A DNA stretch of 63,981 bases, filler included, from Caldilineae bacterium (GTDB taxonomy: Bacteria > Chloroflexota > Anaerolineae > DTLA01): NCBI GenBank assembly GCA_037446815.1. It is 6 parts of 6 records of this genome, joined end to end, with 100 filler letters (N's around TTAATTAATTAA, not from the genome) between each part and the next. Parts side by side here need not be neighbours in the genome. Positions count along the whole stretch, not along the records: positions 11,366 to 22,498 come from JBBIHX010000092.1; 5 more parts are not named here. One strand, written 5' to 3'. A model generated the notes under the pieces. The model was not told the origin of the DNA, ran no database searches, and saw nothing but the letters and a program-made list of their open reading frames with translations. Positions 116 through 15,719 of this stretch are shown here, piece after piece. The translations under genes were made by a program, and so were the position numbers. Positions within the stretch are counted from its first letter, which is position 1; each line of letters begins with the position of its first letter.

Positions 116-1279
116 ATGAACGAGCGTCAACTGCTGATGATTCCTGGCCCCATCTCCTTTGATCCCGCCGTGTTGCGGGCCATGTCTATCCCCACCGACA
201 GCCATGTCAGTCAGGAATTCGTTGACCTGTTCGGGCAGGTTCTGGACGACATGCTCCAGGTCTTCCTCGCGCCGCACGGATATCCGTTTGTGGTGGCCGG
301 CTCGGGGACGCTGGCCATGGAGTTGGGCCTGGCGAACCTGGTGGAGCCGGGGGACCGCGTCCTTGTCCTGCGCACGGGCGTGTTCGGCGAGCGATTCAGC
401 GACATCGCCCGCCGCCAGGGCGCCGAGGTGGACGAAATCGTCGCGCCGCTGGGCGACGTGCCCGATATGGGCGAGGTGGAGGCCAAACTGGCCTCGGCGG
501 CGTACAAGGTGATGACCGCAACCCACGTGGACACGTCCACGGGCGTGGCGGTGGACGTCAAGGCGCTGGCCGCGCTGGCGAAAAAGTATGGCGCGTTGTC
601 GGTGGTGGATGGCGTATGCGCCACGGCGGGCATGGAGTGTCGGCAGGAAGAGTGGGGCGTGGACGTGTACCTGACGGCATCGCAGAAGGCTATCTCGGTG
701 CCGCCGGGCCTGGCCCTGCTGGTGGCCAGCGAGCGGGCGATTGACGCCTTCCGCAAGCGGAAAACGTTGGTGCGCAGTTACTACGCCGACTGGGGCAAGT
801 GGCTGCCCATCATGGAATCGTATCGGGCGCGCAAAGCGGCCTACTTCGGCACGCCGGCGGTCAATCTCGTCTATGCATTGCGGGTGAGCCTGGGGCAGAT
901 TCTGGCCGAGGGCATGGAGGCGCGGTTCCGGCGGCATGGGCGGCTCAGCGACGGGTTCAAGGCGGGGATGAGCGCGTTGGGCCTGCGGCAGGTGCCGGTG
1001 CGCCCGGAGATCGCGGCCACCACGCTGACAGCGGTTTACTATCCCGATGGCATCGGCGCGGAACTGCTGGCGAAGGTGGCGCAAGAGGGCGTGGTTGTGG
1101 CGGGCGGCCTGCATCCCGACATCAAGGCGAAATACTTCCGCGTGGGCCACATGGGGCCGGCGGGCCCGTCGGACATCCTGGCAACGGTGGGAGCCATTGA
1201 GCGCGGGCTGGGGGCTTTGGGCCATCCTGTGGAACTGGGGTGCGGCGTGGAGGCGGCGCAGCGGGCCATGGGACTGTAG
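116..1279 (+). CDS. class V PLP aminotransferase (alanine-glyoxylate/serine-pyruvate type)
   Basis: LLMIPGP N-terminus, HVDTSTG, VDGVC, ASQK PLP lysine, FRVGHMG; ATG after GGAGGGAG. Confidence 0.9.
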   Translation: MNERQLLMIPGPISFDPAVLRAMSIPTDSHVSQEFVDLFGQVLDDMLQVFLAPHGYPFVVAGSGTLAMELGLANLVEPGDRVLVLRTGVFGERFSDIARRQGAEVDEIVAPLGDVPDMGEVEAKLASAAYKVMTATHVDTSTGVAVDVKALAALAKKYGALSVVDGVCATAGMECRQEEWGVDVYLTASQKAISVPPGLALLVASERAIDAFRKRKTLVRSYYADWGKWLPIMESYRARKAAYFGTPAVNLVYALRVSLGQILAEGMEARFRRHGRLSDGFKAGMSALGLRQVPVRPEIAATTLTAVYYPDGIGAELLAKVAQEGVVVAGGLHPDIKAKYFRVGHMGPAGPSDILATVGAIERGLGALGHPVELGCGVEAAQRAMGL

Positions 1280-11464: not shown

Positions 11465-11567
11465 AGCAAAGCGGCCGCAAGATCGACCAAAACGCAAACG
11501 TGCAGACATCGCGCTGCATCTCGCCGCCGAGACCGTGGCGGCGCAACCTTGCCCAGGAGGTTCACCG

Positions 11568-12293
11568 TTGTTCCCCAACCCATCCAACGCCTGGCGTGAG
11601 ATTCTGGAGCGCATCTTTGAGGGATTCCAGGGCCAGGAGAACGTTACGCCGGAGTGGCTTGTCAATCCCGAGACGGGCCGCCGCCTGAAGTTGGATCGCT
11701 ACTATCCCGAAGCCGGCATCGCGTTTCGCTTCATCGGCAGCACGGGCAAACGGAAAGCGCCGGTCTCGGAGCAGGAACTGGCCGAGGAGGCGCGCCGCGA
11801 TGCCATCCGCGATAAGTTGTGCCAACAGGCCGGCGTCCACCTGGTTACCATTGACCTATACGAGGGCGAGCCGCCCAAGGTGCTGGAGGAGATTCGCACG
11901 GCGCTCAGTCGCGCGGCGCGGCAACTGGCCCAGGGCGACCGCCCCCAGCGCGTCAAGACCGACCTGACGCAGCGCCTGGCGCGGGCGCGGCAGGCGTGCG
12001 ATCGCCTTGCGCCGCGCGTGCGCTCCTACGATGACCTGACGCTCTACGCCCAACTGTGGGAGGATCGGCAGTACATGCGACGGGACGAGCCGACCACGAG
12101 CGCGCCGCCCGCGCCGGTGAAAAACCCGTTTGCGGCGGGCATGCGCGTGGAGCACGAGCGATTCGGGACGGGCCGCGTGCTGGACGTGCGCGAGGATTCG
12201 GCGGGCAGCACGGTGAAGGTGCAGTTTGACGACGGCGCCGAGCGGACATTCTTGCTGCACCTGGTCGTGGACAAGATGAAGCCCCGCAAGTGA
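11568..12293 (+). CDS. Vsr/DUF559-like restriction-fold domain fused to a C-terminal PcrA/UvrD-type Tudor domain
   Basis: WLVNPETGRRLKLDRYYPEAGIAF...RDAIRDKLC...GVHLVTI; C-terminal GMRVEHERFGTGRV...VQFDDG; TTG after AGGAGG. Confidence 0.65.
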   Translation: MFPNPSNAWREILERIFEGFQGQENVTPEWLVNPETGRRLKLDRYYPEAGIAFRFIGSTGKRKAPVSEQELAEEARRDAIRDKLCQQAGVHLVTIDLYEGEPPKVLEEIRTALSRAARQLAQGDRPQRVKTDLTQRLARARQACDRLAPRVRSYDDLTLYAQLWEDRQYMRRDEPTTSAPPAPVKNPFAAGMRVEHERFGTGRVLDVREDSAGSTVKVQFDDGAERTFLLHLVVDKMKPRK

Positions 12294-12313: not shown

Positions 12314-14860
12314 ATGAGCCTCAAGGGCGTCGCGGCGTTGCTGGAGGAACTGCAACACGCGCCGGAATTCGCGCGGAACGTTACGGCGTGGAGACGGCAG
12401 GAGGTGTCTCCCGCGCGCCTGCGCCCATTCCCTGCCGACGCCCACGCGGATTTGGTCGCCGCGCTCCGATCCAGGGAGATTGACGCCCTGTACACGCACC
12501 AGGAGGCGGCGTGGCGGGCGGCCAAGGAAGGCCGGCATGTGGCCGTTGTTACCCCCACGGCGTCGGGCAAGACGCTATGCTACAACCTGCCGGTTCTGGA
12601 TGCCTTGCTGCGCGACCCCCGCGCTCGCGCGCTGTACCTGTTCCCCACCAAGGCGCTGTCGCAGGATCAACTGGCGGAACTGCGGGATTTGGCGTCGCGG
12701 GTATCGGCGGGCATCGCCCCGTCGGTCTACGATGGCGACACGCCCGCCAGCGCCAGGACAACCATACGCCGCACGGCGCGCCTTGTCATCACCAACCCCG
12801 ACATGCTCCACCAGGGCATTTTGCCCCACCACACCAACTGGCTGAGTCTCTTCCAGAACCTGCGTTTCGTCGTCCTGGACGAGATTCACACCTACCGCGG
12901 CGTCTTCGGGAGCCACGTCGCCAACGTGTTGCGGCGGCTGAAGCGGGTGTGCGCCTTCTACGGGGCGTCGCCCCAATTCATCTGCTGCTCCGCCACCATC
13001 GGCAACCCGCTGGAACTGGCGCGGAAACTGGTGGAGGAGGACGTCACCCTGGTGGACGATGACGGCTCCCCGAAGGGGGAGAAGCACCTGGTGTTCTACA
13101 ACCCGCCGCTGTTGGACGCTGCGACGGGCCTGCGCCGAGGCGCGCTGCTGGAGGCGCTGTCGCTGGCGGCGCGCGCGGTGGAACTGGACGTGCAGACCAT
13201 CGCCTTCGCCCGCTCGCGCCAGTCGGCGGAGGTGCTGCTGACGTACCTGCGGGACACGCTCCGCAAGCGCAACCTCAACGCCGACGCCGTCCATGGCTAT
13301 CGCGGCGGGTATCTCCCCACGGAGCGGCGGCAGATAGAGAAGGCGCTGCGAGAGGGCGCGGCGCGGGCCGTCGTGTCCACCAACGCCCTGGAACTGGGCA
13401 TTGACATCGGCAATCTGGACGCCTGCATTATGGCGGGCTATCCGGGCACCATTGCCAGCACCTGGCAACAGGCGGGGCGCGCCGGGCGGCGGAGCGGCAC
13501 GTCGGTGGCCGTGCTCGTCGCCAGCGCCGACCCGCTGGATCAGTACATCGTGCGCCACCCCGACTACTTCTTCGGCCGCTCGCCCGAACACGCGCTGATT
13601 CACCCCGACAACCCGCGCATCCTGGAGAGCCACGTGCGGTGCGCCGCGTTTGAACTCCCCTTCCGCGACGGCGAGATGCTGGGAGCCGCGGCGGCCACGC
13701 CGGACATCCTCGCGCGCCTGGAACAGGACGGCATCCTTCGCCACGCCGCGGGGACGTGGTACTGGATGAGCGAGTCGTACCCGGCGGATGGCCTGTCGCT
13801 GCGCGTCGCCGATGCCGACGCCTTCACGATAGAGTGCCCGGATGACGAGGGGCGGCCGCGGGCCATCGGAGTCCTGGATCGCGCGTCGGCGCCCAAGTTC
13901 CTGTATCCAGACGCCATCTACATGCACGAGGGGCGGCAGTACCTGGTGGAAAGCGTGCAATGGGACGAGGGGCGCGCCTCCGTGCGGCCCGTGCAGGCGG
14001 ACTACTACACCGACGCCCTGGGCACGAGCGATGTGGCCGTCCTGCGCGTGGCCACGGAGGACGCCTCGGCGGCGCGCGCGTGGGGCGATGTGCGCGTTAC
14101 CCGTCGCGTTACCGGCTACCGCAAGGTCAAGTTGTACACCCACGAGACGCTGGGCTGGGGCGACGTTGTCTCGCCCGACCAGGTCATGGACACCACCGCC
14201 TACTGGCTGACCGTGCCCGACACCGTGGTGGATGCGCTGCGGGCAGCGGGCGCGTGGGATGTGGCCCCCATCGCCGACTACGGCCCCAACTGGGAGGCCC
14301 AGCGCGAACTCGCCCGCCAGCGCGACGGCTACCGCTGCCGATTGTGCGGCGCGCCCGAGAAGCCAGGCCGCCAGCACGACGTTCACCATCTCGTCCCCTT
14401 CCGCGAGTTCGGCTACGTGCCAGGCCAGAACGACCGCTACCTTCAGGCCAACGAGTTGGGGAATCTCATCACCGTTTGCCACAACTGCCACACCCGAATT
14501 GAGACCTCCAAGGCGGCCGAGAGCGGCCTACACGGGCTGGCCCACGTCCTCGTACACCTGGCCCCCCTGTTCCTCATGGCGTCGCCGCAGGATTTGGGCG
14601 TGAGCGCGTCGGTGCAGGCGCCGGGCACGCGCAGGCCCACAATTTACCTGTACGATGAGTTCCCGGGGGGCGTGGGGTTCGCCGAGCGGCTGTACGAGTT
14701 GCACCGCGACCTGCTGCGCGCGGCGGAGGAACTCATCGTCGGTTGCCCGTGCGCGGACGGCTGCCCGTCGTGCGTGGGGCCGGTGGACGACCCCGACGCC
14801 CAGACGAAGGCGCACACGCTCCTGCTGGTGCGGGAGATGCTGCGGCTGGGCGCGAGTTGA
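12314..14860 (+). CDS. DEAH-box helicase of the MrfA/YprA/Hrq1/SftH family with DUF1998 and an inserted HNH domain
   Basis: PTASGKT, FPTKAL, DEIH, SAT, TNALELGIDIG, QQAGRAGR, CPCADGCPSC; HNH motif at about 14291-14503. Confidence 0.9.
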   Translation: MSLKGVAALLEELQHAPEFARNVTAWRRQEVSPARLRPFPADAHADLVAALRSREIDALYTHQEAAWRAAKEGRHVAVVTPTASGKTLCYNLPVLDALLRDPRARALYLFPTKALSQDQLAELRDLASRVSAGIAPSVYDGDTPASARTTIRRTARLVITNPDMLHQGILPHHTNWLSLFQNLRFVVLDEIHTYRGVFGSHVANVLRRLKRVCAFYGASPQFICCSATIGNPLELARKLVEEDVTLVDDDGSPKGEKHLVFYNPPLLDAATGLRRGALLEALSLAARAVELDVQTIAFARSRQSAEVLLTYLRDTLRKRNLNADAVHGYRGGYLPTERRQIEKALREGAARAVVSTNALELGIDIGNLDACIMAGYPGTIASTWQQAGRAGRRSGTSVAVLVASADPLDQYIVRHPDYFFGRSPEHALIHPDNPRILESHVRCAAFELPFRDGEMLGAAAATPDILARLEQDGILRHAAGTWYWMSESYPADGLSLRVADADAFTIECPDDEGRPRAIGVLDRASAPKFLYPDAIYMHEGRQYLVESVQWDEGRASVRPVQADYYTDALGTSDVAVLRVATEDASAARAWGDVRVTRRVTGYRKVKLYTHETLGWGDVVSPDQVMDTTAYWLTVPDTVVDALRAAGAWDVAPIADYGPNWEAQRELARQRDGYRCRLCGAPEKPGRQHDVHHLVPFREFGYVPGQNDRYLQANELGNLITVCHNCHTRIETSKAAESGLHGLAHVLVHLAPLFLMASPQDLGVSASVQAPGTRRPTIYLYDEFPGGVGFAERLYELHRDLLRAAEELIVGCPCADGCPSCVGPVDDPDAQTKAHTLLLVREMLRLGAS

Positions 14861-14885
14861 ACAAACCGCCCTCTCGGAGTACAAT
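14857..14885 (+). promoter_or_regulatory. sigma70 promoter
   Basis: TTGAAC-N17-TACAAT. Confidence 0.5.
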
Positions 14886-14909
14886 AGCGGCGGGCCAAGA
14901 GGAGCGGAA

Positions 14910-15719
14910 TTGCCAACGCCGATTACCCATCTCGCTATCGCGCAGCGCATCCTGGGCGCTCGCCCCGAACTCGCACCCCAGGGCGATGAGGATGCCCTTG
15001 GGGCCTTCCTGCTCGGCAGCACGCTGGCGGATGTCCGCGTCGTAACGGGCGAGCCGCGCGCCGCCACGCATTTCCTTCGCCTGCCCCCGCAGCGCGGCGA
15101 TTCGGGCATTCGCGCCATGCTGGGAGCGCACCCGAGCCTCGCCGACCCGAACGGCGCTGACCCGTGCGCCCGCCTGATGGTGGCGGGATACCTGGCCCAC
15201 CTGCTGGCCGACGAAATCTGGCTTGTCCGCGTGTACTGGCCCTACTTCAAACAGGCGGCGGCCCGCCACGATATGGAAAGGCTTCTGTGGCACGACCTGC
15301 TGCGCTCGGTGGTGGATCAGCAGGACCGCGCCGCCGTTCCCCGCAGTTTTCGCCGTGTACTGGAGTCGGCCCGCTGTCCGAACCCGTTTCCGTTCATCTC
15401 ACGGGAGGCGCTGGATGCCTGGCGGGAGTTGCTCCTGCGCGAGTTGGAAGCGCCCGACTCATCGCCCACCTTCGCGCATTTTGCGTCGCGCTACCGGTTG
15501 CCGACGGAAGAGTTCGTGGCGCTGCTTCGCTCGCCGGACTACATGGCGCGCGTGCAGGGGCTGGTGCCCGACGGGACCGCGGCCCGATACCGCGAAGAGG
15601 CCGCGAGGATGGGCGGGGCGCTGGTGGGCGCCTACCTGGATGGACGGGTGGGAGAGTTTCCGCTCCCGCTGCTAGACCCGGAAAATCCCGAAGCGTATGC
15701 CATAACGGAGGAGGCGTGA
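14910..15719 (+). CDS. zinc-dependent phospholipase C family protein
   Basis: [28 protein letters not shown] motifs; TTG after GAGGAG. Confidence 0.7.

Follow-up and report, generated by a model that had tools for sequence, protein, structure and literature searches.

A gene of a Caldilineae bacterium (assembly GCA_037446815.1), found in the 63,981-nucleotide stretch of joined genome parts that we analysed (the window), encodes a member of an unnamed family of proteins of about 240 aa, in which a Vsr-type nuclease fold with an altered active-site signature is joined, through a helical region, to the Tudor domain at the C-terminus of the PcrA and UvrD helicases. Because a nuclease-shaped domain lacking its signature is here attached to the domain by which UvrD/PcrA docks on UvrB and RNA polymerase (RNAP), the protein is likely to be an accessory factor, as yet undescribed, of repair or transcription. 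More specifically, we put at about one half (0.5) the probability that it serves nucleotide-excision or transcription-coupled repair as an accessory or adaptor factor, which would dock through its Tudor domain while its nuclease-fold module would be non-hydrolytic. A literature search returned no description of a Vsr-like fold combined with a UvrD-type Tudor domain, and every homologue carries the database name 'hypothetical protein', in line with the initial annotation, whose author knew of no characterised protein with such an architecture.

The initial annotation had placed the gene at 11568..12293, and the reading frame is indeed present there with a TTG start at 11568; it is a genuine gene under constraint. 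The longest frame in the ORF list begins further upstream at a GTG (11535..12293), and we set the start at the TTG because of the homologues (241 aa) and the AGGAGG at 11555-11560. Compared with the three closest related loci (L001-L003), the whole gene has a dN/dS of 0.12-0.22 and its N-terminal domain is the most constrained part, at 0.05-0.12. The search for a regulatory RNA upstream found none, Rfam giving a single miRNA match at chance level (E 0.24), and the gap before the downstream helicase gene was empty in the promoter and terminator scan. The parts of the gene and its immediate context are collected in Table 1.

Table 1. Positions, along the window, of the gene, its predicted domains and its context.
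Feature	Positions	Strand	Basis
Whole gene, 241 codons plus TGA stop, TTG start	11568..12293	+	ORF list
Shine-Dalgarno-like AGGAGG, 7 nt 5' of the TTG start	11555..11560	+	sequence reading
Predicted Vsr/DUF559/DUF2726-type PD-(D/E)xK fold, residues 1-100	11568..11867	+	AF2 models, VIA-align, hhalign, residue counts
Arg54 codon CGC, in place of the invariant catalytic Glu (E104, P0191 numbering)	11727..11729	+	R in 48/48 rows of A1 and 40/41 of A3
Three long helices, residues 101-175	11868..12092	+	model secondary structure, conservation, charge
Variable Pro/Ala/Ser-rich flexible linker, residues 176-190	12093..12137	+	block pLDDT falls to 62; columns gapped and unconserved in A1
PcrA/UvrD-type Tudor domain, residues 191-241	12138..12290	+	family profile, predicted fold, residue counts
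MrfA-like DEAD/DEAH helicase (context), with DEAD, Helicase_C, HRQ1 winged helix, HNH insert and MrfA Zn-binding domain	12314..14860	+	Pfam

Searching for homologues at E<=1e-3 yielded 131 proteins, mostly of 238-250 aa and beginning at the same residue; residue counts are given for a family alignment of 48 rows (A1) and another of 41 rows (A3). The family was seen only in Chloroflexota records, one of them from Caldilinea aerophila (L043). Of 250 genomes sampled from the class, 78 carry it, with a single copy in nearly every case, as do all four genomes sampled from the order of the window's organism; it is conserved across a portion of the Anaerolineae that includes Caldilineales. A phylum-wide search with the full-length family profile matched 236 of 301 genomes. 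Among the 150 matches listed, all except the gene of G001 itself and those in G048, G141 and G281 covered the C-terminal part only, mostly the Tudor region, nearly all in frames of helicase size (700-1,430 aa), so this search is uninformative on the spread of the family. In NCBIfam, PHROGs and PADLOC the Tudor tail had no more than weak matches, to UvrD/PcrA equivalogs (15-19 bits) and to TmtA (E 1.9e-4); a single PHROG, of unknown function, matched at E 0.0067.

The protein was modelled by AF2 at a mean pLDDT of 92.6 (89.7 for a second AF2 model), and its N-terminal domain is predicted to adopt an alpha-beta-beta-beta-alpha-beta topology. When this domain was compared with 48,161 chains using VIA-align, the first rank fell to I-Bth0305I (3r3p_B, Z 9.8, 96 of 98 residues aligned), the second and third to Vsr (1cw0_A, Z 8.4) and NGO0050 (3hrl_A, Z 7.8), and nearly all further rows were PD-(D/E)xK nucleases. 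These three are the structures listed for the group 'VSR, DUF559, DUF2726' in Table 1 of Steczkiewicz et al. 2012 (PMC3424549). The family as a whole aligns with a set of canonical relatives at a probability of 99.8% (hhalign, E 4.4e-29), which carry PxWLxNPxTGxxLELDxY...AFEYxGxQH...RDxxK. The N-terminal pattern pointed out in the initial annotation is letter-exact in the protein (WREILERIF, PEWLVNPETGRRLKLDRYYPEAGIAFRFIGSTG, RRDAIRDKLCQQAGVHLVTI) and lies far above chance, since the region is homologous to this large set of relatives, and the likeness then claimed to restriction-fold endonucleases of large DNA viruses and phages held up, with 77 viral predicted structures matching at E<=1e-3, those with names being giant-virus or phage 'restriction endonuclease', DUF559 and treble-clef zinc-finger proteins.

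The tie to the Vsr/DUF559/DUF2726 group runs through hhalign to the canonical relatives and not through Pfam. PF10881, PF04480 and PF03852 gave no match to the protein at E<=1, and the canonical relatives themselves match DUF2726 below threshold only (13 of 28, best E 1.7e-4). Their profile had no significant match among PDB sequences (best RadA, E 0.071). The structure search proposed for both domains succeeded for the Tudor domain by Foldseek, with TM scores of 0.80-0.89 normalised on the target (7egt, 0.89), and for the N-terminal domain by VIA-align, whereas Foldseek of the N-terminal domain alone against the PDB found no match at E<=1e-3 (best AbaSI, 1.2e-2). Retroviral integrases, which took the top Foldseek ranks when the full model was searched against the PDB, were rejected at an rmsd of 18-20 A, because the likeness lies in the arrangement only, namely an alpha/beta domain, a linker and a small barrel.

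Compared with the nucleases of this group (1CW0, 3HRL, 3R3P), the domain has the same predicted fold and is homologous to the canonical relatives, and it differs in its signature, with E->K41, E->R54, loss of the His and K->R81. The 28 canonical relatives are invariant at E91, D93, E104, G107, H110, D129 and K132 (P0191 numbering), so that their E-x-D ... E-[YF]-x-G-x-x-H ... D-x-x-K stands against K41-x-D43 ... R54-F-x-G57, without a His, ... [DEN]78-x-x-R81 in the family. These letters are held almost without exception (K41 in 46 of the 48 rows of A1, D43 in 45, G57 in 47, R54 and R81 in all), and a conserved His is lacking. The R-F-I-G-S-T-G that the initial annotation read in place of E-[YF]-x-G-x-x-H is exact. 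By these residue counts, the metal-binding and catalytic signature of the Vsr-type fold is rebuilt in the family, and the module is probably non-hydrolytic, as a metal site with basic side chains usually binds no metal.

The invariant R38, S67 and E70, together with the very strong constraint, could equally reflect a changed chemistry. The protein might then be a still-active nuclease with a non-canonical site, which its Tudor domain would aim at UvrB-bound lesions or stalled RNAP, where it would cut DNA or RNA. In favour of this are the N-terminal domain being the most constrained part of the gene, the retention of Glu11 (48/48) and Asp43 (45/48), and a set of residues invariant in the family (R38, R54, R77, R81, S67 and E70) that suggests a rebuilt rather than a decayed site; active-site variation is also a known trait of the PD-(D/E)xK superfamily, according to the available part of PMC3424549. 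Three of the seven invariant signature residues are nevertheless replaced, E->K41 and E->R54 being charge reversals at the metal site and the His being lost, and we regard an active nuclease as unlikely.

Following the nuclease fold, the helical region carries the protein's basic character, with a median pI of 10.2 and a net charge of +5, and holds a conserved LSRAxRxLAQ and W164-x-D166-R167. The N-terminal domain is itself not basic, and its median pI of 5.7 lends no support to simple binding of DNA through it. The canonical relatives carry HTH or treble-clef zinc-finger modules where the family has the three-helix extension and the Tudor domain. A Vsr-like nuclease fold also occurs in the RAP domains of RNA-associated proteins, which are eukaryotic and have no Tudor fusion. 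The predicted domain resembles those of FASTK-like and mitoribosomal proteins (9g6k_Li, Z 7.2; 9gek_A, Z 6.9; 6z1p_AS, Z 6.6) in fold only, at an rmsd of 4.4-5.2, and RAP domains are accordingly a precedent for reuse of the fold and not a demonstrable relative.

Through a short beta-hairpin motif, the PcrA/UvrD Tudor domain brings the helicase to a small number of partners, RNAP and UvrB among them, and to our knowledge it has so far been described as a helicase appendage. Against PDB sequences, the family profile (A1) matched 4c2t_A (E 1.8e-7), 7egs_B (2.1e-7), 6yi2_A (2.2e-7) and 1qhh_D (8e-4), and the predicted domain is a five-stranded barrel that superposes on the solved PcrA/UvrD domains, best on 7egs_B (Z 9.5, rmsd 2.0, 54 residues), followed by 5dma_A (Z 8.7), 9dqs_A (Z 8.2) and 7egt_D (Z 8.2, rmsd 1.3 over 47 residues). 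At the level of the family, these values bear out the C-terminal PcrA/UvrD Tudor match of the initial annotation; of the span it gave, about 12126-12293, the domain stands and the start does not, the barrel beginning slightly later, at about 12138. The single protein scores 19.3 bits with Pfam PF21196 (E 0.001), below the cut-off of 23.9, its orthologues in G001, G003, G004 and G005 lie above it (24.3-26.6) and that of G002 scores 20.0; 37 of 120 listed homologues have a precomputed PF21196 match. Between the domain and the C-terminal domain of a close relative's PcrA/UvrD, 16 of 47 residues are identical.

The domain thus shares with the PcrA/UvrD Tudor domains (PF21196; 5DMA, 6YI2, 7EGS, 7EGT, 9DQS) the fold, at Z 8.2-9.5 and an rmsd of 1.3-2.2, and the C-terminal position behind a flexible linker, and differs in being carried by a 175-residue module of nuclease fold and helices instead of an SF1 helicase core. 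Pfam and the other family models gave no helicase match anywhere in the 241 residues. In PcrA, each of the substitutions H681A, W684A, K712A and L714A abolishes the pull-down of RNAP, as stated in the accessible text of PMC5397179. The alignment sets H196 against H681, F199 against W684, R226 against K712 and F228 against L714, the latter two also falling on the K and L of GIKWLV in UvrD. H196 is found in 48 of 48 rows of A1, position 199 is F in 43 and Y in 5, position 226 R in 37 and K in 11, and position 228 F in 41 and L in 7. Going by this alignment, the Tudor domain keeps the residues of the PcrA/UvrD partner-binding surface, three of the four positions being conservative replacements and not identities.

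What this surface might bind can be approached through the docking motif published for PcrA/UvrD, [VIL]-D-x-x-T-G-E-[VIL]-[VILT] (available part of PMC8318588). Its strict form is present in UvrB in 24 of 32 family-positive genomes, and in RpoB in 4 of 30 family-positive versus 3 of 20 family-negative genomes (12 of 30 versus 10 of 20 for the relaxed form), three of 33 family-positive loci having been left out of the RpoB count for want of a readable region. Across these 30 and 20 genomes we found no link between presence of the family and the RpoB motif, so docking on RNAP would not be general unless the domain tolerates variants of the motif. G001 and G002, the two genomes nearest to the window's organism and stand-ins for its own, do have the strict RpoB motif, and in this order it lies within a lineage-specific insertion of RpoB. 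Given 24/32 for UvrB against 4/30 for RpoB, UvrB appears at least as likely a partner of the Tudor domain as RNAP. The UvrB motif is conserved across bacteria at large owing to PcrA/UvrD, and its presence is therefore permissive, not specific. In the initial annotation the protein had been read as a catalytically dead adaptor tethered to RNAP; both domain assignments (from profiles and predicted fold) and the degenerate signature survive, while RNAP as the sole candidate partner does not, in view of the UvrB and RpoB counts.

Other partners have to be weighed as well. According to the accessible portions of the two sources, the Tudor surface that binds RNAP in PcrA/UvrD also binds UvrB (PMC8318588), the partners of the UvrD-type domain in B. 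subtilis comprise RpoB, UvrB, YxaL and YwhK (PMC8318588), and in mycobacteria that of UvrD1 binds Ku (PMC11975281). With so many partners on record and the RpoB motif poorly kept in family-positive genomes, the domain might serve an unrelated pathway through Ku or another hairpin protein; yet the four RNAP-binding surface residues are kept and the UvrB motif is strict in 24 of 32 genomes, and we think this very unlikely. UV repair in both mycobacteria and E. coli can do without the Tudor domain of UvrD/UvrD1, as reported in the accessible part of PMC11975281, so docking by this type of domain may be a weak determinant of function. As a separate observation, a hairpin of the N-terminal domain, L-V-N-P-x-T-x-R-R-L, resembles the docking motif and might be what the Tudor domain of the same protein binds, a reading disfavoured because the critical Glu is an invariant Arg.

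In all five genomes checked, PF21196 has exactly two matches, one in a frame of PcrA/UvrD size (740-840 aa) and one in a family member. A normal Tudor-bearing PcrA/UvrD thus resides beside the family protein, whose binding-surface residues are kept (A1), and free UvrB competes with RNAP for PcrA's Tudor domain (available part of PMC8318588), which establishes competition at this site for other partners. The protein might accordingly be a decoy or regulator that occupies the helicase-interaction hairpin on UvrB or RNAP and limits or times the access of PcrA/UvrD, with the nuclease fold as bulk or sensor. A pure decoy would, however, have no use for a strongly constrained N-terminal part of 175 residues, and neither a regulatory context nor a conserved neighbour was found at 80 loci; we consider this role improbable.

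The gene is followed on the same strand, 20 nt past its stop, by the gene of the MrfA-like helicase, which probably starts at the ATG at 12314 after an AGGAG. With no terminator-like site in the gap and the same gene order in L001-L003, the two could form a dedicated pair, helicase and nuclease-like protein, in repair. That adjacency, though, was seen in only 3 of 80 related loci, covered over at most 6 kb to either side, and these three are the closest relatives (78-86% identity), the other loci having unrelated neighbours; we rejected the helicase as a conserved partner and hold a dedicated pairing to be highly improbable. All-against-all clustering of ORFs of at least 90 aa within 4.5 kb, over the 80 loci and the window, gave no conserved neighbour pointing to a pathway. 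The commonest real cluster was present at 19 of 80 loci, two larger clusters were antisense shadow frames of the gene itself, and those with Pfam matches were unrelated housekeeping genes, e.g., MurJ, xanthine dehydrogenase subunits and F420 ligase.

For the accessory or adaptor factor that we prefer, the Tudor domain would dock on the beta-hairpin 'helicase interaction motif' used by PcrA/UvrD, which is kept most consistently in UvrB and, in the window's order, also in the RpoB insertion. Once docked, the remodelled nuclease-fold module and the basic helices would come to the DNA or RNA of a repair complex or of a transcription complex that has stalled. The protein would use the docking site of the resident PcrA/UvrD as well, and the two may compete for it. 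In the small bacterial factors CarD/CdnL and in the RNAP-interacting domain of Mfd, a Tudor-like barrel docks on the RNAP beta subunit while a second part touches DNA. To these the domain bears a likeness of fold (T. thermophilus CarD 4l5g_A, Z 8.5; Mfd 6m6a_M, Z 6.5); the CarD_CdnL_TRCF family of Pfam has no sequence match in the protein, the order of domains is reversed, the barrel being C-terminal here and N-terminal in CarD/CdnL, and the sequence kinship is with PcrA/UvrD. PcrA/UvrD binds a site different from that of Mfd, without competing, as described in the accessible part of PMC8318588. A bolder version, which we put forward tentatively and with more doubt than belief, is a dedicated, helicase-independent factor of repair or transcription in part of the Anaerolineae, in which the UvrD/PcrA docking domain would carry a rebuilt Vsr-fold module to lesions bound by UvrB or to RNA polymerase that has stalled, the module acting as a reader of lesions, mismatches or nucleic-acid structure, or as a nuclease of new chemistry.

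Were the protein an ordinary structural accessory, no more would be gained than the naming of a family of hypothetical proteins. The family would also be a clean example from nature of a nuclease fold that is strongly selected after charge reversal at its metal site, and could inform the roles of 'pseudo-nucleases'. A conserved, free-standing carrier of the Tudor domain that is not a helicase would show that the docking site is common to other effectors, and if the bolder version holds, several unrelated effectors, and not helicases alone, would use the 'helicase interaction motif' of UvrB and RpoB as a general landing pad. Chloroflexota are a large phylum with almost no genetics, and the protein would offer a handle on transcription-repair coupling in these bacteria.

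The open frame around window positions 11568..12293 (+) is readable from a GTG at 11535. Because the homologues are 238-250 aa long with a first residue matching the TTG at 11568, and an AGGAGG precedes that codon, we assigned a product of 241 aa (P0002). Nei-Gojobori comparison with the closest orthologues (loci L001, L002 and L003) gave a whole-gene dN/dS of 0.12-0.22; by region, the values were 0.05-0.12 in residues 1-100, 0.04-0.38 in 101-182 and 0.14-0.32 across the final 59 codons. Window 11568..12293 is a genuine gene under constraint.

The initial annotation had placed a PcrA/UvrD Tudor-like domain at the C-terminus, and both profile and structure comparisons bear this out. As a single sequence, the window protein scored 19.3 bits against Pfam PcrA_UvrD_tudor, under the 23.9 threshold. 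The profile of the family alignment A1 (48 of 120 listed homologues, picked across the identity range) matched solved UvrD/PcrA C-terminal domains: 4c2t_A (E 1.8e-7), 7egs_B (E 2.1e-7), 6yi2_A (E 2.2e-7) and 1qhh_D (E 8e-4). In the AF2 full-length model based on A1 (mean pLDDT 92.6, pTM 0.70), the last 55 residues superposed on 7egs_B with Z 9.5 and rmsd 2.0 over 54 aligned residues, in agreement with Foldseek, as well as on 5dma_A (Z 8.7), 9dqs_A (Z 8.2) and 7egt_D (Z 8.2, rmsd 1.3, 34% identity). Passages of Sanders et al. 2017 (PMC5397179) describe G. stearothermophilus PcrA H681A, W684A, K712A and L714A as each ending the RNAP pull-down, and K708A as the UvrD mutant used; UvrD K708 probably corresponds to PcrA K712. 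HMMER alignment to the PcrA chain pairs H681 with family H196 and W684 with F199, and alignment to E. coli UvrD pairs the K and L of GIKWLV with R226 and F228. Throughout A1, position 196 is H (48/48), 199 is F (43) or Y (5), 226 is R (37) or K (11), and 228 is F (41) or L (7).

The N-terminal domain of the window protein had no direct match to any library model scanned (Pfam, NCBIfam, PHROGs, PADLOC). An exhaustive phmmer search returned 774 proteins at E<=1e-3, the non-family matches covering about residues 20-110 of the longer 252-aa frame (P0001). Among 49 relatives scanned of 150 listed, the domain is preceded by HTH_36 or another winged-helix domain, by DUF4379 treble-clef zinc fingers or by GcrA-like segments, and many show weak DUF2726 matches; the relatives' motif reads PxWLxNPxTGxxLELDxY...AFEYxGxQH...RDxxKxxxC..G. 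In A2, an alignment of 28 short canonical relatives that keep the E..E..H signature, P78, L81, N83, E91, D93, E104, G107, H110, D129 and K132 are invariant (numbering of the canonical relative P0191), and DUF2726 appeared below threshold in 13 of the 28 (best E 1.7e-4). Hhalign joined the family to these canonical relatives with a probability of 99.8% (E 4.4e-29, 145 columns).

The AF2 model built for residues 1-122 alone, from 41 sequences (the window and 40 of 80 loci), reached pLDDT 89.7 and pTM 0.82, with an alpha-beta-beta-beta-alpha-beta core. Ranked against 48,161 chains, it lay closest to the I-Bth0305I catalytic domain (3r3p_B; Z 9.8, rmsd 2.9, 96/98 residues), then Vsr (1cw0_A; Z 8.4, 103 aligned) and NGO0050 (3hrl_A; Z 7.8), followed by proteins with RAP domains and numerous further PD-(D/E)xK nucleases. 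All three top structures are listed in the group 'VSR, DUF559, DUF2726' in Table 1 of Steczkiewicz et al. 2012 (PMC3424549). Foldseek of the N-domain against PDB gave no match at E<=1e-3. From the viral library, 77 predicted structures matched at E<=1e-3, the named ones from giant-virus, iridovirus, ascovirus and phage sources and called 'restriction endonuclease', 'Uvr/REP helicase', DUF559, homing endonuclease or treble-clef zinc-finger proteins, consistent with the likeness to nucleases of large DNA viruses and phages first proposed from the sequence.

The nuclease signature, initially read as degenerate, is so in the aligned family members: comparing A1 with A2, E91 is replaced by K41, E104 by R54, and H110 is lost. 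R54 also occupies 40 of the 41 rows of the N-domain alignment A3, the remaining row having Y. Glu11 of the first helix is invariant in the family, and R38, S67 and E70 are family-conserved with no conserved counterpart in canonical relatives. Two charge reversals at acidic signature positions, together with the loss of the histidine, speak for loss of the canonical metal-dependent chemistry from the domain. The very low dN/dS shows that the domain still serves a function, either binding or new catalysis; an active nuclease with new chemistry would accord with this constraint, and, set against the losses at the signature, we regard it as unlikely. It is the three helices after this domain that are basic (median pI 10.2, net charge +5); median pI values of 5.7 for the N-domain and 5.5 for the Tudor domain put those two near neutrality or on the acidic side. 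The linker after the helices, variable in length and sequence, falls to a pLDDT of about 62.

Features of the window gene, its remodelled site and its neighbourhood (site rows: P0191 residue, then family equivalent; counts in A1)
Feature	Position	Strand	Remark
AGGAGG	11555-11560		7 nt upstream of TTG at 11568
E91	K41		46/48
D93	D43		45/48; N in 3
E104	R54		48/48
G107	G57		47/48
H110	61		no conserved residue; K, R, N, A or Q
D129	78		D, E or N in 46/48
K132	R81		48/48
Three helices	residues 102-122, 127-150, 154-173		AF2 model
Two ABC-transporter-like ATPase frames	upstream of gene		from the ORF list
NUDIX gene	upstream of gene		Pfam
MrfA-like helicase	12314-14860	+	starts 20 nt past the gene's stop
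Frame after helicase	14655-15719	+	weak Zn-dependent phospholipase C match, E 0.0065, below cut-off
GalE-like epimerase	downstream of helicase		putative, from appearance of translation

Word-indexed searching yielded 131 proteins at E<=1e-3, each unnamed or labelled 'hypothetical protein', and every taxon-bearing source name was Anaerolineae or Caldilineae. When one genome per species was scanned by pattern, 138 relative-encoding loci emerged, and the 80 kept are all Chloroflexota records (Anaerolineae, Caldilineales, unclassified Chloroflexota). The N-domain-only profile A3 matched 4/4 genomes in the order of G001, a nearest relative, and, at E<=1e-15, 78/250 sampled genomes of its class, with one match in 77 and two in G369. 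A phylum search with the full-length profile was rejected as a gauge of spread, its matches being mostly the Tudor tail of helicases; its tally takes in five genomes flagged unpublished (G232, G043, G277, G150, G178), on which none of our conclusions depends. The second, weaker match in G369 (G369:C40:234242-234583, E 9.7e-25) lies within a 2,343-aa open frame, which could reflect either fusion with a very large protein or simply a long open frame in G+C-rich DNA. The sole copies at G525:C15:42719-42946 and G533:C1:554813-555037 are interrupted by an in-frame stop codon (TGA and TAA, respectively), align over only the first ~75 positions and may be decaying. In P0161 (502 aa) and P0200 (1004 aa), an N-domain resembling the family's is linked to ABC-transporter permease domains (BPD_transp_1); these proteins could be true fusions or gene-calling run-ons. 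Immediately upstream of the window gene, too, there are ABC-transporter-like frames. The shorter relative P0184 (204 aa) shares the LSxAxRRxAQ helix, has Lys at family Arg54 (LAIKFRAS) and no Tudor match among the matches listed; it could represent an intermediate.

The downstream helicase carries DEAD, Helicase_C, HRQ1 winged-helix, HNH-insert and MrfA Zn-binding domains (Pfam). Its HNH endonuclease domain (residues 683-737, E 7e-6) separates the HRQ1 winged helix from the MrfA Zn-binding domain. The helicase's best NCBIfam model, TIGR03817, scored 686 bits, under the 874 cut-off; the frame after the helicase still adjoins the helicase in L002 and L003. A promoter/terminator scan found no terminator-like site in the gene-helicase gap, and a dedicated helicase partner might be read from such proximity. 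The arrangement recurs only in L001-L003 (78-86% identity) and is absent from 77/80 loci within up to 6 kb on each side, and when all flanking ORFs were clustered, no neighbour was shared by more than 19/80 loci, the Pfam-matched clusters (MurJ, xanthine-dehydrogenase subunits, F420 ligase, peptidases, response regulators) being unrelated. The family is thus a free-standing chromosomal gene whose helicase adjacency is limited to one order, and a dedicated partnership is highly improbable.

The helicase interaction motif [VIL]-D-x-x-T-G-E-[VIL]-[VILT], in a beta-hairpin of B. subtilis RpoB SI1 and UvrB, binds the PcrA Tudor domain, for which UvrB competes with RNAP; its chance expectation is ~0.3 for the whole B. 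subtilis proteome (passages of Urrutia-Irazabal et al. 2021, PMC8318588). We read this motif in relatives' genomes (G001, G002, G003 and the class sample) rather than the window's own. RpoB of G001 and G002 contains the strict motif, IVDPETGEVV, within a ~55-60-residue insertion between ETPYRKV and YLSADEE, and G003 has a degenerate version; by amino-acid frequencies, ~4e-4 chance matches are expected in a 1,280-aa protein. The insertion differs in position from the B. subtilis SI1 motif site, and to our knowledge E. coli RpoB is without it. Class-wide (L091, L092, L097-L146), an insertion of this length lies between ETPYR(K/R)V and Y(L/M)(S/T)ADEE, often with a motif-like hairpin, D-P-x-[TS]-G-E-V-[VI]. 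The RpoB insertion holds the strict motif in 4/30 family-positive versus 3/20 family-negative genomes, and the relaxed D-x-x-[TS]-G-E-[VILM]-[VILT] in 12/30 versus 10/20 (of 33 positive loci, 3 could not be read and were left out). UvrB holds the strict motif in 24/32 family-positive genomes, with the T-G-E core whole in 6 of the other 8; the UvrB query had no match in 1/30 genomes. Putative docking sites are therefore present, as far as these sequences tell, and the UvrB site is steadier than the RpoB site. In the protein's own nuclease fold, the hairpin at residues 31-40 (window 11658-11687), L-V-N-P-E-T-G-R-R-L, resembles the motif; several canonical relatives have V-N-P-x-T-G-E-R-L, the key Glu being an invariant Arg in the family.

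Neither the UvrB nor the RpoB motif is family-specific, because PcrA/UvrD needs both too. The window Tudor domain shares 16/47 ungapped identical residues with the C-terminus of the PcrA/UvrD-size gene in G001, and PF21196 matched exactly twice in each of the five family-positive genomes checked, in a 739-839-aa frame and in the family member. That the protein is a decoy for PcrA/UvrD seems to us quite unlikely. In mycobacteria Ku is another Tudor partner, and UV repair does not need the Tudor domain (passages of Warren and Shuman 2025, PMC11975281); a partner other than UvrB or RNAP for the domain here is very unlikely.

We favor, at a probability of about one half, a reading in which the Tudor domain, on its flexible tether, docks at the hairpin of UvrB, RpoB or both; the remodelled Vsr-fold module and its basic helices would thereby reach nucleic acid at complexes of repair or of stalled transcription. 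What the analysis demonstrates is the domain architecture and the degenerate state of the signature. Full-text searches of main texts, with subscription-only papers outside their scope, found no paper describing a nuclease fold joined to a PcrA/UvrD Tudor domain, in line with the initial statement that no characterised protein of this architecture was known. Both domains come from known superfamilies; what makes this a new family, within kinds already known, is their combination together with the rebuilt site.
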